Origin: an uncultured Bacilli bacterium
GTDB taxonomy: Bacteria > Bacillota_I > Bacilli_A > RF39 > UBA660
NCBI GenBank assembly: GCA_934098375.1
Contig: CAKOOC010000001.1
Coordinates: 6,772-70,771, forward strand
Length of the DNA stretch: 64,000 nt
Direction of reading: 5' to 3'
This document shows, one piece after another, positions 33,001 to 39,000 of this stretch (position 1 is its first letter; every line of letters starts with the position of its first letter). Made by a program: the position numbers.

Positions 33001-36000
33001 ATAAACTCCTTGATATTTTCCCATTTTTTCGAAGGCAAATACACTTTTATAATCTTCTACTACGCATATTAAGTTATGATTTCGGTATTCATCGTCACAA
33101 ATGCGACATTTATTTTCGGTCGTTATGTTACCACAGATTTGGCATGTATGCAATTTTGTTTTAGCATCTACTATAGCGGCAGCAAATGATTCAACATCTT
33201 CTTCAGTGAATTCAATTACAGATAATGCTAATCTTTCTGCGGTTTTTTCGCCTATACCTGGAAGCTTTTTAAAGTATTCAATTAAATTTTCAAGAACTTT
33301 GGGATAAATCATGTTACATCAATCCGTTTAATCCTTTAGCAAGACCGCCTAGTTTTTGTTCAACAGTTTTTTCAATTTGTTTTATGGCATCGTTGATAGC
33401 AATTTTAATCATATCTTCTAATGCTTCTAAGTCTTCTTCATCATGTAAAATGCTTTTATCTATTTCTATTTTAATAATTTCTTTTTTACCATTTAATTTT
33501 GCGGTAACAGCACCTGATGTGCTGGTAAACTCCATTTCATATATTTCTTCTTGTTTTTTTTGTAAATCTCTTTGCATTCTTTGGGCTTGTGCCATTAAAT
33601 TTTGCATATTCATATTTCTTTCCTCCTAATTACTTTCTAATTAACTTCAATTATTTCATCAGCAAAAATATCTTTTGCAGCGTTATAAACTTCGGTTTGT
33701 TCTGTTTCAGTTTTTATTTCTTCTATATATTCATATTTTTTATTTTTGTTTTTAATAAATTCTGATTTTTCTTTTAACCATCTATTTTCATCTAAGCAAA
33801 TAAATACTTCGGTACTATTTGTGTGTTTTTGATATTCTTTTTCAATTAGTTCAAGATTATTGTTAAATAATAATGAAGTAGATAAAGATTTTGATGAAAA
33901 TATAACATTAGTTGGAGAAACTACCTCAACTTGTAAATCCTCAATTAATGATAATATTTCTGATTTATTATTTATGGTTATATATTTTATAAAGCTTTCC
34001 CATTTATTTTTAAAATTTGACTTTATTTCTTTTGTTGCGCCTACATAAGCGTTATTAATACGAATTCTTATAAATTCTTCTTTAATTGGTTTTGATAAAT
34101 CTGTTTGCTCATCAAAGTCATTTTCTTTTAAATCTTCCTTTGTTTCAGGGGAAGCTTCTGTTTTTATTATTTCTGAATGATTTTCCTTTTTTATAGGATC
34201 TAAATTTTCTTGTTTTGCTTCAGAAATTATTTCCCGGGAAATAATTTTAGATTGTTTATCAGCATTTTTATTGGAAAAATAACTCAGTAAAATAATTTTT
34301 ATTAAGTTAAAAGCTCCTTTTTTATTGTAACATTCTGATAAATCTTTTGATAAATTTTTAATATCTGTAATTGTAAGAACATTTTGTTCACTATTAATTG
34401 TTTTGATTTCTAAAGAATATAAATAATCTATTAATTTATTTATTAAAAGGTTTAAATCTAATCCTTTGTTTTTATAGTTATCAATTATTTGATTAAATTT
34501 ATCAATATCTTGGCTACTTAAAGCGTCTATTATTTCATTTATATCATTATTACCAATTACACCAAAAGTTTTTTCAATTAATTCAATAGTAATTTTTTGA
34601 TTTTCTTTTGATAACTGATCTAAAAAGCTTAATGCATCTCTCATACCACCATCGGATAATTCTGCTAGATATTTAATGGCTTCTTCGTCAATTTCTATTT
34701 TTTCTAAATCGGCGATTCTTTTTAAATTTTCACTGATTACGTTATTATTTATTTTTTGAAAATTATATCTTTGACATCTAGATAAAATAGTTATAGGAAT
34801 TTTCTGAATTTCTGTAGTAGCTAATATAAAGATAATATGTTTTGGTGGTTCTTCTAAGATCTTTAAAAATGCGTTCCAAGCACTTTGAGAAAGCATGTGA
34901 ACTTCATCAATTATATATACTTTATATTTACTTAAAGCCGGTAATATTTTAGCATTATCTCTTAAATCTCTAATTTCATCTACGCCATTATTTGATGCAG
35001 CATCGATTTCAATTATATCGGGTGATTCTTCATAATTTAAGCAAGAGTTGCATTTATTACATGGTATTCCATCTATGGGGTTTTCACAGTTAATAGTTTT
35101 AGCAAATAATTTGGCAGTGCTGGTCTTTCCGGTTCCTCTAGGACCAGAAAATAAATAAGCATGAGCCAATTTTTGCTGTTTTATTGATTCTTTTAAAAGA
35201 GTTTTTATATTATCTTGTCCATATAAATCATTAAAATCTTGAGGACGATATTTTCGGTAAAGTACTTTATATGCCATTGTTTCCTCCATACATGTATATT
35301 ATATCATAGTAAAGAGGTTTATTTGCTTTTTTTAGCGTAAGTTTTTCCAAAAAAATTCATTTAATTTTATGTATTCATCTTTTTTAGCAGCCATTTGTGA
35401 TGGCAGTGATAATTGTTCAAATTCTGTTTTATTATATATTTTTTTTGTTTGTAATTTTGGAAGTAAATAATACACTCTTTCTATACGACTTTCTTTAATA
35501 ACATTTTTACACATATCACATGGTTCAATAGTTACATATAGCGTACATTTGTTCAATCTCCATGTTTTTAATTTTTTATTAGCTTTAATTATAGCTTTGA
35601 TTTCAGCGTGATCAATTGTTTTTTGAGTTTTATTTCTTTTGTTATATGCTGTTGATATTATTTTATTATTATAAACAATTATGGCAGAAATAGGTGTTTC
35701 ATTTTGTAGATATGCTTTTTTTGCCAATGATAATAATTTATTTATTATTTTTTCTTCCATATTTACTCCTAAATAAAAAGCGCACATATATAGAGGTAAA
35801 TGTGGCTGCTTTCTTCCGAATCTGACCAGGTTATTACATATATATTGCGCAATTTAATATTAACACATGAATTAAGTATAATCAAATAATTATAATAAAA
35901 TGTTTCACGTGAAACATTGAAGCATGTGGATAACTCTTTAGCAAATAAAAATATATATATTATTATAAATTTAAACAAAGTACATACAAAATTATTTCCC

Positions 36001-39000
36001 GGGAAATAATTTTGTATTAATTAAAGTAATATAAATGTTTCACGTGAAACATTTATGTGTATAACTTTAAAAATTTTAAATTGATATTAATTTTAATATA
36101 TGCAATAATTATTTATATTTATTTCTAGAATTAAAAATTTTTAGCCGATGTTTCACGTGAAACATCGCAGATTGTTTACAACTTAATATCAAGTTTCGTT
36201 TTTTTATAAATTATTTCCCGGGAAATAATTTATTATTTTCAAATATTAAAAATTTAATATAACTTACGGCAATGTTTCACGTGAAACATTGCCTTTTGTG
36301 GAAAAATTTTATTAATTTATAAAAAACATTAATTTATTATATAAATATTATTATTATATATTTTAAGCGATAATGTTTCACGTGAAACATTATCGCTTGT
36401 GGATAACTATAGTTTTTCTTTAAGCAAAATTATTTCCCGGGAAATAATTTTATTAATTAACTATTAAATAATAATTATTTAAATTACTTAAATTTTATTT
36501 CATTATGAACATAAAATTTTGTGCAAATGTTTCACGTGAAACATTTGCTTGTTCATATTTAATTATAGAATTAATAAAAAAACACCTATTTTTGTAATTT
36601 ATAAGGTGTTTTTAAGTTTTATTTTTAATGTTTCACGTGAAACATTGTTGATAACAATTAATCTTGACTTTGTTCTTGTTCTGATGTTTCACGTGAAACA
36701 TCATCTGAAGACACTAAGCTAATTGAAGAAACAAATTGATTATCTTTTAAGTTAATTAGTCTTGTTCCTTGAGTTACTCGGCCTAATTGTGATATTTGAT
36801 CGATTGGAATTCTTATTATTATGCCTGTATTAGTTATCAACATCAAATCCGTTTCAGGCATACACTTTTTAATTGCTACAATATTACCGTTCTTTTCAGT
36901 AATATTTAATGCTTTAACGCCTTTGCTACCACGTTTTGTTTTACGATACTCACTTAACATTGTTTTTTTGCCATATCCTTTAGCGGTTACAATAATAATA
37001 TTATCGTCATCAGTAGCGGCTTCTAAGCTAACACATTTTGATCCATTTAAATTAATACCTCTAACTCCTGATGCTGTACGACCCATAATACGAATTTCGT
37101 TTTCATCAAACACAACCATTCTGCCTGATTCAGATGCAAGCATGATATTATGTAAACCATCAGTCTTTTTAACATCTACTAATTCATCTTTTTCTTTGAG
37201 TTTTATGCACAATTTACCAGTTTTACGAATGCTATCGAATTCATTTAAGGCCGTTCTCTTAACTATACCATCTCTAGTAGCGAATAATAAATATTTAAAG
37301 TCATCATCGTTATTATAAGATATAACAGATTGAACTTTTTCATCCTTTTCGATTGGAAGTAGGTTTATAACTGGAAGACCTTTTGATGTACGACTAAATT
37401 CTGGTACTTCATAACCTTTAATCTTATATACTTTACCTTTATTTGTAAAGAATAATAAGTAATCATGAGTATGTAGATTTAGCAAGTAATCAACACAATC
37501 TTCTTCGTTAGTTGACATTCCCTTTACACCTACGCCACCACGATTTTGAATGCGATACGTATCTACAGTGGTTCTCTTAATATATCCATTCTTTGTTAAT
37601 GATACTATTATGTCATCATTTGGAATTAATGATTCATCTTCAATATAATCAATAGCTGTCATATCAATAGTTGTTCTTCTTTCATCTCCAAAGCGTTCTT
37701 TTATATCAGTTAATTCTTCTTTAATAATTCCTAAAATTAATTCTTCTGAAGATAGGATTTTGCGATAATAGTCGATTTTTTCTAGTAATTCTTTTAATTC
37801 GTCTTCTATTTTTGATCTTTCAAGACCAGTTAAACGACGTAATTTTAATTCTAAAATACTGTCAGATTGTATTTCTGTAAGGCCAAATCTCGTCATTAAC
37901 TCATTTTTAGCAACCTGATCAGTTTCTGATTCTTTAATTATCTTTATTACTTCATCAATGTGATCTAAAGCAATTTTTAAACCATTTAATATATGTACTC
38001 TATCTTCAGCTTTCTTTAAATCAAATTGGGTTCTTCTTATAATTACTTCTTTTTGATAATTAATATATTTAGCAATAATATCTTTTAATCCAAGTGTTTT
38101 AGGAGTTTTTTCATCAATCATTAAAAGAATTATGCCATAATTAATTTGGAATGCAGTATGTTTATATAAATTATTTAAAATTACTTGAGCATTTGCATCT
38201 TTCTTTAAAGTAATTGTAATTTTGATGCCATTTTTTAAATCAGTATGATAGTCAGAAATACCATCAATTATCTTATTGTGAACTAGTTCAGCAACTTTAG
38301 CATGAACATCCTTTAAATTAATTCCATAAGGAATTTCTGTTATAACAATGTTATTATGTTGACCTTCTTCTTCGATTGTAGCACGGCTACGAATTGTTAT
38401 TGATCCTCTTCCTGTTTCATATGCTTGTTTTATACCTGAATTACCTAAAATGATGCCGCCAGTTGGAAAATCTGGGCCTTTAATATAATTCATTAACTCG
38501 GCTGTAGTAATATCATGATTATCAATATATGCAATACAACCATCGATAACTTCAGTTAAATTATGTGGTGGTATATTTGTAGCCATACCTACTGCAATAC
38601 CCATAGCACCATTTACTAAAATATTAGGATATCTTGATGGTAAAACTTCTGGTTCTTGCAACGATTCATCAAAGTTTGGTCGCATATTAACGGTGTCTTT
38701 TTTTATATCTCTTAACATTTCTAAAGAAATTTTTGATAATCTTGATTCTGTATAACGATATGCAGCGGCAGAATCACCTTCAATAGTACCGAAGTTACCG
38801 TGACCATCAATTAAAGTATATCTTAACTGAAAACTTTGAGCTAATCTTACCATGGCATCATATATAGATGAGTCTCCATGTGGATGGTAGTTACCCATAA
38901 CTTCTCCGACTGATTTAGCACATTTACGATGCGGTTTATCGGGAGTGTAACCATTTTCATACATAGACCAAAGAATTCTTCTATGAACAGGTTTTAAACC

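Follow-up and report, generated by a model that had tools for sequence, protein, structure and literature searches.

Introduction

ParB and Noc are the two best-understood DNA clamps gated by cytidine triphosphate (CTP) and a textbook case of a duplicated protein, with binding sites, parS and the Noc-binding site (NBS), that differ by two bases per half-site. Classically the two sets of sites are kept separate, parS at the origin and NBS scattered, in B. subtilis over roughly 70 loci. Here we analyse a 64-kb stretch of DNA from an uncultured Bacilli bacterium (the window; 26% G+C, standard bacterial genetic code), which encodes a Noc-type protein and in which eight perfect parS and three perfect NBS are interleaved in the interval between gyrA and the signal recognition particle (SRP) RNA gene. 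Coordinates are window positions, and L and P numbers are our labels for loci or contigs and for homologues. Neither the sites nor the protein families are new; what is undescribed is their conserved arrangement, in which the Noc is a variant one. We favour, with somewhat better than even confidence, the reading that this interval, ~9 kb from oriC, is a composite centromere-like platform on which ParB and Noc-type clamps are loaded.

As a CTP clamp, Noc brings DNA to the membrane, and its N-terminal amphipathic helix is needed for membrane binding (PMC8429893); in S. aureus its sites occupy 41 loci (PMC5540599). The present locus shares with the Noc-NBS systems of B. subtilis and S. aureus the identical 16-bp site TATTTCCCGGGAAATA, a cognate gene directly after rsmG (gidB), a protein with a ParB CTP-binding domain, an NBS-type helix-turn-helix (Q173, K179, R201) and a Noc-like C-terminal domain, and the occurrence of single NBS outside the array, for example in dnaX. 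It differs in that the NBS, scattered singly round the chromosome in the known systems, are here stacked and alternate with parS. The window protein is also without the 10-residue amphipathic helix essential for nucleoid occlusion, and its subfamily has N or S (not K) at position 184, and a disordered linker of 100-400 residues with a motif of its own; the window protein scores 280 bits against a cut-off of 315 bits for Noc.

Several perfect parS within 10 kb of oriC, as found here, are a feature of the ParB-parS centromeres of Bacillus, Caulobacter, Corynebacterium and Pseudomonas, and one window parS lies in coding sequence (gyrA), encoding V(S/P)RET, as the internal parS of B. subtilis spo0J likewise does. 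In contrast to those centromeres, the density of sites is higher (eight in 0.8 kb, and up to ~11 in relatives), they are interleaved with the sites of a second protein, and the array is not beside parAB, parB not being present within 27-54 kb of oriC. Iterated plasmid centromeres, such as F sopC with its 12 repeats of 43 bp, are matched by several relatives' arrays, which run head-to-tail (125-127 bp, 9-11 copies) with sites in helical register; the present arrays differ in carrying two palindromes for two paralogues per unit and in being chromosomal, and in the window the repeat has decayed to the sites. A possible analogy may be drawn with RacA-ram of sporulating B. subtilis, in which clustered origin-proximal sites serve a DNA-binding protein that tethers the origin to the envelope, but RacA belongs to another protein family and has another motif, ram sites are dispersed over hundreds of kb, and tethering is only hypothetical here. 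Clusters of DnaA boxes and datA-like loci resemble the window array in that it contains five co-oriented DnaA-box-like sites, two of them perfect; however, such boxes are not conserved across the arrays of the clade, whose defining elements are parS and NBS.

A first-pass annotation of the window, made from the sequence alone, knew of no described locus of this kind, and in the main full-text literature on ParB and Noc we likewise found no description of natural interleaved parS/NBS arrays or of the site layout of this Noc subfamily. The artificial use of parS together with NBS for imaging is present in that literature, and a 2025 survey of the ParB fold mentions Noc in its classical form only.

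Results

The interleaved array

The first-pass annotation had reported three perfect NBS interdigitated with parS, and a scan of the window bears this out: perfect copies of ATTTCCCGGGAAAT (the 14-bp NBS) are found at 35994, 36213 and 36432, successive starts being 219 and 219 bp apart as claimed, and a fourth is found at 34229. All four copies match the full 16-bp form. When up to two mismatches were allowed, the window still gave four matches against 0.28 expected, and none of 100 shuffles reached four. The hexamer CCCGGG, singled out earlier as improbable in DNA this rich in A and T, occurs four times in 64 kb, every time within an NBS. The shared core and the identity of copies 1 and 3 reported before are also real, as the three array copies have AAATTATTTCCCGGGAAATAATTT (24 bp) in common and copy 1 agrees with copy 3 at every base over at least 26 bp. 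The palindromes are genuine sites of NBS type and, near the origin, are interleaved with parS.

The parS sequence TGTTTCACGTGAAACA is present in eight perfect copies, all of which conform to the 16-bp palindrome TGTTNCACGTGAAACA, and no further parS was found in the window at up to two mismatches. Degenerate copies of either site were absent from the rest of the window and from ~28 kb of flanking DNA taken from contigs of the same species. Known NBS are scattered singly and are absent from the terminus; the local pattern departs from this, with four sites within 2.2 kb and none in the other ~80 kb examined. With P for parS and N for NBS, the array at 35.9-36.7 kb reads P N P / P N P / P N P / P P, which corresponds to three parS-NBS-parS triads followed by two parS; it fills the ~0.8-kb non-coding interval between gyrA and the SRP RNA gene, and its last parS reaches into gyrA. 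The order of the first nine sites had been given correctly, whereas two further parS (eight in all and not six) and the fourth NBS had been missed.

The first site, parS 1 (35901..35916), lies ~42-57 bp upstream of the SRP RNA 5' end and is identical in L014, a close relative treated below, as is NBS 1 (35993..36008), the centre of a 32-bp perfect palindrome. Among the further perfect 16-mers aligned with L014 are parS 2 (36036..36051), parS 3 (36149..36164), NBS 2, NBS 3 (36431..36446) and parS 6 (36528..36543). NBS 2 (36212..36227) sits near the midpoint between parS 3, 63 bp off, and parS 4 (36273..36288), 61 bp off; the latter has the palindromic flanks GGCAA..TTGCC, and parS 5 (36374..36389) is the centre of a 30-bp perfect palindrome, GCGATAA..TTATCGC. 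At the far end, parS 7 (36629..36644) is found directly downstream of the gyrA stop codon and parS 8 (36685..36700) within the 3' coding end of gyrA, where it encodes ..VSRET... The isolated NBS 4 (34228..34243), 1.77 kb away, is in frame within dnaX and falls in a variable linker of its product, where the extended site is read as IISREII. At least 16 relatives share both this peptide and the site, and an NBS falls inside the dnaX span in 28 of 78 loci.

The palindromy of the parS flanks differs from site to site (GGCAA..TTGCC, GCGATAA..TTATCGC, GCAAA..TTTGC and CGA..TCG at 36262-36299, 36361-36402, 36520-36550 and 36143-36170, respectively). Among the relatives listed below, flank complementarity at +3 to +5 is 0.46-0.49 against ~0.34 expected from composition. 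In the window, three parS with GC-rich palindromic flanks score as terminator-like hairpins. Possible explanations of this extra palindromy are hairpin or cruciform formation, the mode of birth of the sites, or symmetric contacts. A separate hairpin, AAAAACACCT..AGGTGTTTTT followed by a T run, is found on the minus strand at 36581-36616, between parS 6 and parS 7, and is plausibly the gyrA terminator, which would place parS 7 and parS 8 within the gyrA transcription unit.

Selection on the sites and the 219-bp spacing

A comparison was made with L014, a metagenome-assembled genome (MAG) from a Hadza gut that is 95% identical to the window. Not one substitution was observed in the 176 site positions, whereas the spacers carry 55 in 648 (8.5%) and 19 gap columns besides (P about 2e-7). 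Since the site positions are unchanged while the spacers vary, the sites are not chance occurrences and are under purifying selection, parS and NBS alike.

The spacing itself behaves otherwise. The first-pass annotation had laid weight on a distance of exactly 219 bp, about 21 helical turns; in L014 the NBS are 154, 219 and 225 bp apart, the difference being one extra parS-NBS module and two 3-bp indels, and in other lineages array periods range from 76 to 196 bp, most often 125-127 bp. A conserved 219-bp phase is ruled out by this alignment together with the spacing spectra across the clade. Nor does the spacing derive from a tandem repeat: Tandem Repeats Finder (TRF) and a second repeat finder detected no likeness in the window beyond the sites and their immediate flanks, and head-to-tail units of the iterated-centromere type were not detected there by TRF. 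Given that there is no tandem repeat, no conservation in L014 and no helical phase shared by the sites, we treat the 219/219 equality as real but incidental.

That the palindromes are something other than loading sites, namely remnants of mobile elements, restriction-modification contexts or hairpin terminators, is a reading to which we give almost no credence. CCCGGG and CACGTG are classic restriction sites, three parS score as terminator-like hairpins, and the parS flanks are unusually palindromic. Against this, the sequences match known 16-bp protein sites exactly, with NBS extensions conserved to 24 bp, they are confined to one syntenic chromosomal slot, and some of them lie in frame within dnaX and gyrA; moreover, no transposase or terminal-repeat structure is present in the window. 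The first-pass annotation had itself named a restriction-modification context, a miniature inverted-repeat transposable element (MITE) and a scar as alternatives, and these are disfavoured by the syntenic slot, by the lack of transposase and terminal repeats and by the lack of a viral match. A phage or mobile-element origin was likewise rejected, as the NBS-parS pattern had no match among 2.9 million viral contigs.

Conservation across the clade

A scan for NBS-N(25-55)-parS in 185,579 species-representative genomes returned at least 119 loci (L001-L119; the listed loci, to which the counts for relatives refer unless stated otherwise). Nearly all of them come from uncultured gut or rumen MAGs with 22-31% G+C, labelled as Bacilli, Erysipelotrichaceae, Mycoplasma, Tenericutes or Candidatus Onthousia. 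A gyrA and/or tadA homologue stands beside the array in 114 of 119, and both do in 72. The interleaving reported for the window is kept, in the same slot, in at least 119 related species, but the 219-bp phasing is not. The flanking GyrA is 53-99% identical to that of the window (median 67%), and because it is so diverged the slot must be old.

Arrays have a median of five sites and a maximum of 16, and parS-NBS-parS is the commonest minimal form; the extended NBS consensus of the whole clade is AAATTATTTCCCGGGAAATAATTT. Some lineages have arrays built as true tandem repeats, each 125-127-bp unit containing exactly one NBS and one parS; L025 (2363-3702) has 10.7 copies and L060 (1-1122) has 8.8. 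The parS of the L060 array is a one-mismatch variant, TGTTCCACGTGAAACA, and the L025 and L060 units share a further short motif (ACTTCTCTATA / TATAGAGAAGT) present in about 10 loci. No third motif common to the arrays emerged: those recovered were lineage-specific, like ACTTCTCTATA with its ~10 loci, or were NBS variants in decay. In the arrays of 16-22 loci the centre of the NBS recurrently reads CCCAGG or CCTGGG (CpG to TpG), which is consistent with NBS decay, possibly through deamination of methylated cytosine.

The distances between the sites show a regularity across the clade. Centre distances between adjacent NBS and parS peak at 47-48, 57-58 and 68-70 bp, with a periodicity of R = 0.35-0.43 at 10.6-10.7 bp and a phase near 5 bp, which persists in the 98 loci that are not tandem-like, and the spans of parS-NBS-parS and NBS-parS-NBS peak at 126-128 bp, ~12 turns. 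From these peaks and spans, sites of one kind tend to share a helical register, and sites of different kinds tend to face opposite sides of the helix. Neighbours are of unlike type in 345 of 513 cases, against 266 +/- 9 when the order is permuted. The two sites also differ in their genomic distribution: 293 NBS are inside arrays, and outside them (more than 600 bp away) 58 NBS stand against 17 parS; in several lineages an NBS lies in dnaX.

These features bear on an alternative in which each site type is functional but the interleaving is a neutral by-product of an amplified, since decayed two-site unit, so that ParB and Noc are co-located without being coupled. The L025 and L060 arrays, being plain tandem repeats, are what it predicts; copy number, order and spacing turn over fast, as seen in the extra module of L014 and in the varied composition of arrays, and the distances in the window have no common phase. 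We nevertheless regard it as rather unlikely, since the arrangement is kept at one syntenic slot despite GyrA identities of 53-68% and unrelated spacers, half-integer-turn phasing extends to the 98 loci without tandem-like arrays, and the minimal array met most often is parS-NBS-parS. The rarity of parS outside arrays (17 against 58 NBS) further indicates that parS is kept specifically beside NBS.

The Noc-type protein

The only ParB-family gene in the window (51868..53298, plus strand) encodes 476 residues and lies where noc is expected, immediately downstream of rsmG (gidB), which ends at 51830 and leaves no room to lengthen the open reading frame upstream. The protein consists of a CTP-binding N-terminal domain, an NBS-type helix-turn-helix, a disordered acidic linker of ~195 residues and a C-terminal dimerisation domain that AlphaFold predicts confidently. 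Pfam PF02195 and PF17762 match it; the NCBIfam Noc model (TIGR04285) gives 279.9 bits, below the cut-off of 315, over profile positions 1-209 of 255. The first-pass annotation had called the product Noc-like, and it is indeed of Noc type by its best matches among solved structures (Noc 7ng0 and 7nfu at ~200 bits, against ~150 for ParB) and by Q173, K179 and R201, although it is without the N-terminal membrane helix of Noc. The CTP-binding boxes, GERRxRA and ENLQR, are intact (GERRYKA and ENVQRKNL in the window), with G, E, R, R and E, N, Q, R, L invariant in 47 homologues.

Specificity in this family has been resolved to single residues. Q173 recognises the NBS adenine and R201 the NBS cytosine; these two plus a single K, at 179 or 184, suffice for NBS specificity, parS binders invariably have R173, and dual binders in the deep mutational scan mostly have T or S at 201 (Jalal et al. 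2020, PMC7383237). The recognition region of the window protein, SQSAVANKLRLLNL...ISERHAR, has Q173, K179, N184 and R201, and by the single-K rule of that study this Q-K-N-R combination is predicted to be enough for NBS recognition. The QKNR and QKSR variants are absent from the part of the supplements to Jalal et al. (PMC7383237) that was available. In each of the 116 homologues that were parsed, position 173 is Q, position 179 K or R and position 201 R, and position 184 varies among N, S, T and A.

The helix-less Noc subfamily to which the protein belongs is large, with at least 150 clusters at 50% identity and lengths of 227-682 residues (P0002-P0120, P0286-P0431). A PNRFQPR box (mostly IPNRFQPR) was found in 119 of 120 homologues and in all of these begins only 12-21 residues in. 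The linker contains a strongly conserved motif, (I/M)PNKFFNFLEDExxNM, which in the window takes the form SFSKLFNIF...SLEDEQTNMN. The N-terminus of B. subtilis Noc is MKHSFSRFFG. Of its residues, K2, S4 and F5 are confirmed in PMC8429893. The resemblance of the linker motif to a relocated membrane-targeting sequence is a lead and not a result.

One reader or two

The sites themselves indicate how many proteins read them. Pure parS account for 384 and pure NBS for 360 of the 750 sites of the form T.TTTC.CG.GAAA.A in the listed loci and the window, and six are other; none mixes the diagnostic positions or joins a parS half to an NBS half. The lack of hybrids among 750 sites is as expected of two exclusive specificities and favours two readers.

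In the window's species no ParB gene was found between -8 kb and +72 kb in window coordinates, a search that took in ~54 kb on the left of oriC and 27 kb on its right. A metagenome scan with a Noc alignment yielded genes of Noc type only, and soj and parB are missing within 6 kb of noc in 77 of 80 noc loci; the ancestral order rsmG-noc-soj-parB is intact in the remaining three and in five further lineages reached via ParB homologues. Soj and ParB of canonical type stand behind this Noc in at least 7 related lineages. There ParB is canonical, with the LGKGL ParA-binding motif, GKSRSH...SMGHAR, R173 and G (or S) at 201, and the accompanying Noc is of the same helix-less subfamily as the window's.

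One such locus, L215 (208,772 bp, with soj-parB), is probably, though this is not proven, the same piece of chromosome as the array-bearing L028 (208,676 bp; site order P N P N P N N). When L028 is reversed, the distance in the window between the gyrA stop and the dnaA start (8,840 bp) predicts dnaA at 121,777, and in L215 it is observed at 121,651. A corresponding match of L013 with L223 was rejected because the coordinates do not fit. A search with an N-terminal piece of DnaA, intended to connect array and parB within one locus, yielded gene fragments only, and array loci could not be joined to parB loci by any direct overlap of sequence.

The lineages part at a rearrangement breakpoint directly after noc (window 53307 onward; compared with L210, L215, L220, L223 and L224). 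In the sister lineages noc is followed by soj-parB-mscS-DUF951-abgT-ychF-rpsF-ssb-rpsR, and three of them continue with rplI-dnaC; in the window lineage it is followed by a penicillin-binding protein gene on the opposite strand and then by prfA, prmC, spoIIR, murA, rpiB and spoIID. In the window lineage the soj-parB block has been relocated or lost. A study of the Bacilli orders (PMC10868615) contains nothing on spo0J or soj.

If ParB had been lost, a single Noc-type protein might bind both parS and NBS. Such a protein would account for the single ParB-family gene, and no soj, from -8 kb to +72 kb, and for the 77 of 80 noc loci without soj-parB within 6 kb; position 184 is N or S and not the usual K of Noc, and dual-specificity variants can be made artificially (PMC7383237). 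We consider this very improbable. The protein combines Q173 with R201, whereas R173 is constant among parS binders and position 201 is mostly T or S in dual binders (PMC7383237); a relaxed reader would tolerate hybrid or intermediate sites, of which there are none in 750; and a canonical ParB is retained alongside this Noc subfamily in sister lineages, among them probably an array-bearing genome (L028/L215). As parS is under purifying selection, we infer that the window's species has a parS reader.

Genomic setting and DnaA boxes

From the GC-skew minimum (~46 kb) and the change of gene orientation, oriC is located where dnaA and rpmH diverge, ~45.5-45.9 kb. To its left, all on the minus strand, follow dnaA (44155..45498), which adjoins it, dnaN, a ComK-family gene, recF, gyrB and gyrA (36658..39216), the right-hand boundary of the array slot; beyond the array come the SRP RNA gene (35764..35859, minus strand), its left-hand boundary, tadA (35332-35787) and dnaX (33637-35289, minus strand). 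The array is 8.8-9.6 kb from the dnaA start, so that its parS are origin-proximal. The ComK-family gene (PF06338) is found between dnaN and recF in the clade (window 42356-42802, minus strand; L120 29-475), and in L120 a perfect NBS occurs at position 534, between this gene and dnaN. Rfam also identifies a transfer-messenger RNA gene (21141-21492, minus strand) and a transfer RNA gene (14572-14642, plus strand), both ordinary.

Five DnaA-box-like 9-mers lie on the minus strand of the array, at 35925, 36056, 36297, 36398 and 36646, each beginning 2-9 bp past the end of a parS; the first and the fourth are perfect (TTATCCACA). Thus 5 of the 23 boxes that the window contains at up to one mismatch fall within 730 bp (35925-36654), the densest cluster of the 64 kb, and the region upstream of dnaA (45499-45923) has only one. 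The boxes are retained in L014, and box-rich arrays occur in L029, L058 and L071. As a fixed partner of parS the DnaA box was rejected, since the pairing holds in the window and L014 and not clade-wide.

The five co-oriented boxes hint at a link to replication in the window's lineage. An alternative built on them is that array and boxes together form a module regulating initiation, by titration of DnaA or by control of DnaA through ParB/Soj or Noc, with segregation secondary. It draws on the position of the cluster next to parS, on the single box upstream of dnaA, on the box-rich arrays of L014, L029, L058 and L071, and on the finding that Noc restrains initiation in S. aureus (PMC5540599). 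However, across the listed loci boxes with up to one mismatch number 1.02 per kb inside arrays against 0.77 outside, only three perfect boxes keep a fixed offset, and the conserved parts are parS and NBS; we therefore give this alternative a low probability.

Discussion

Taking into consideration the selection on both site types, the age of the slot and the NBS-type protein encoded nearby, we favour, at the strength given above, a composite loading platform for ParB and Noc-type clamps in the gyrA-SRP RNA interval. The function of this putative centromere is something that we infer from sequence, and so are actual binding, the identity and location of ParB, roadblocking and membrane contact. 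The eight parS would load a canonical ParB encoded outside the window, and the interleaved NBS would load the Noc-type protein of 51868-53298. With sites alternating every 40-100 bp, both proteins would nucleate and then slide on the same few hundred bp, each bound dimer would act as a roadblock to the clamps of the other protein, and the outcome would be a dense mixed ParB/Noc nucleoprotein zone beside the origin. ParB would contribute SMC loading and origin segregation, as elsewhere; the Noc-type protein would contribute a second interface, most plausibly a contact with the membrane or the division apparatus via (I/M)PNKFFNFLEDExxNM. Division control, or initiation control as reported for S. 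aureus Noc (PMC5540599), are candidates for its role as well. Roadblocking and a mixed complex are plausible because both proteins are CTP-gated sliding clamps (PMC8429893) and DNA-bound proteins block or attenuate the sliding and spreading of ParB (PMC7053999).

Roadblocking could also be the main role of the NBS-bound dimers. Here NBS-bound Noc-type dimers would confine ParB clamps to short compartments, or the reverse, keeping the complex compact and away from the SRP RNA gene and gyrA, with no membrane link. The attenuation of ParB spreading by roadblocks (PMC7053999) suits such an insulator, as do the three triads plus two parS of the window, the frequency of parS-NBS-parS as the commonest array type, the position of the array between two strongly transcribed genes and the missing membrane helix of the subfamily. 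But ParB-family proteins bound to CTP quit their loading site, so that NBS occupancy may be transient, and the linker motif and the NBS outside arrays would be left unexplained; we judge it improbable, to about the same degree as the replication module.

A stronger form of the composite platform, which we put forward tentatively and think doubtful, is a dedicated two-clamp centromere characteristic of the clade. In it, ParB and a remodelled Noc would be obligatorily co-loaded, with nucleation dimers on opposite helix faces (half-integer turns within a 12-turn unit); the ParB face would serve SMC and segregation, and the Noc face would tether the DNA to the membrane or the division machinery via the linker motif.

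Several observations weigh against the composite platform. In the window the centre distances between NBS and parS are 43, 57, 61, 63, 92 and 97 bp, with no common helical phase, and as the spacing differs in the 95%-identical L014, fine geometry cannot be essential here. Tandem duplication of a two-site unit, as in L025 and L060, yields alternation mechanically, and the listed loci, at least 119 in number, were chosen for having one NBS-parS pair and are mutually related, so that the clade statistics do not come from independent samples. The protein lacks the N-terminal 10-residue amphipathic membrane helix, its residue 6 aligning with Noc residue 27, and AlphaFold gives no helix for the linker motif (predicted local distance difference test, pLDDT, ~45-52), which makes membrane contact speculative. 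Searches by tblastn with Spo0J and Soj found no ParB or ParA genes in the window or the listed array loci, and exact-protein look-ups found no ParB within 8-10 kb past either window end; the ~28 kb of flanking DNA in contigs of the same species likewise contain neither a ParB nor a ParA gene.

For the composite platform, the arrangement suggests that a single centromere loads two sister DNA clamps next to each other. Their loading sites are neighbours, often strictly alternating and in helical register, in at least 119 species, which implies that functional coupling of the two systems is possible. The locus is a natural substrate for asking how two sliding clamps interact, whether by collision, roadblocking or co-condensation, and the array, at less than 1 kb, could be made synthetically for assays with purified proteins or in B. 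subtilis or E. coli. It also bears on the role of a Noc without the N-terminal membrane helix, and on the organisation of the origin in uncultured gut Bacilli with reduced genomes, related to Erysipelotrichales and Mollicutes. If true, the two-clamp centromere would be a device coupling segregation and division in a large clade of gut Bacilli, most of which are without soj-parB beside noc.

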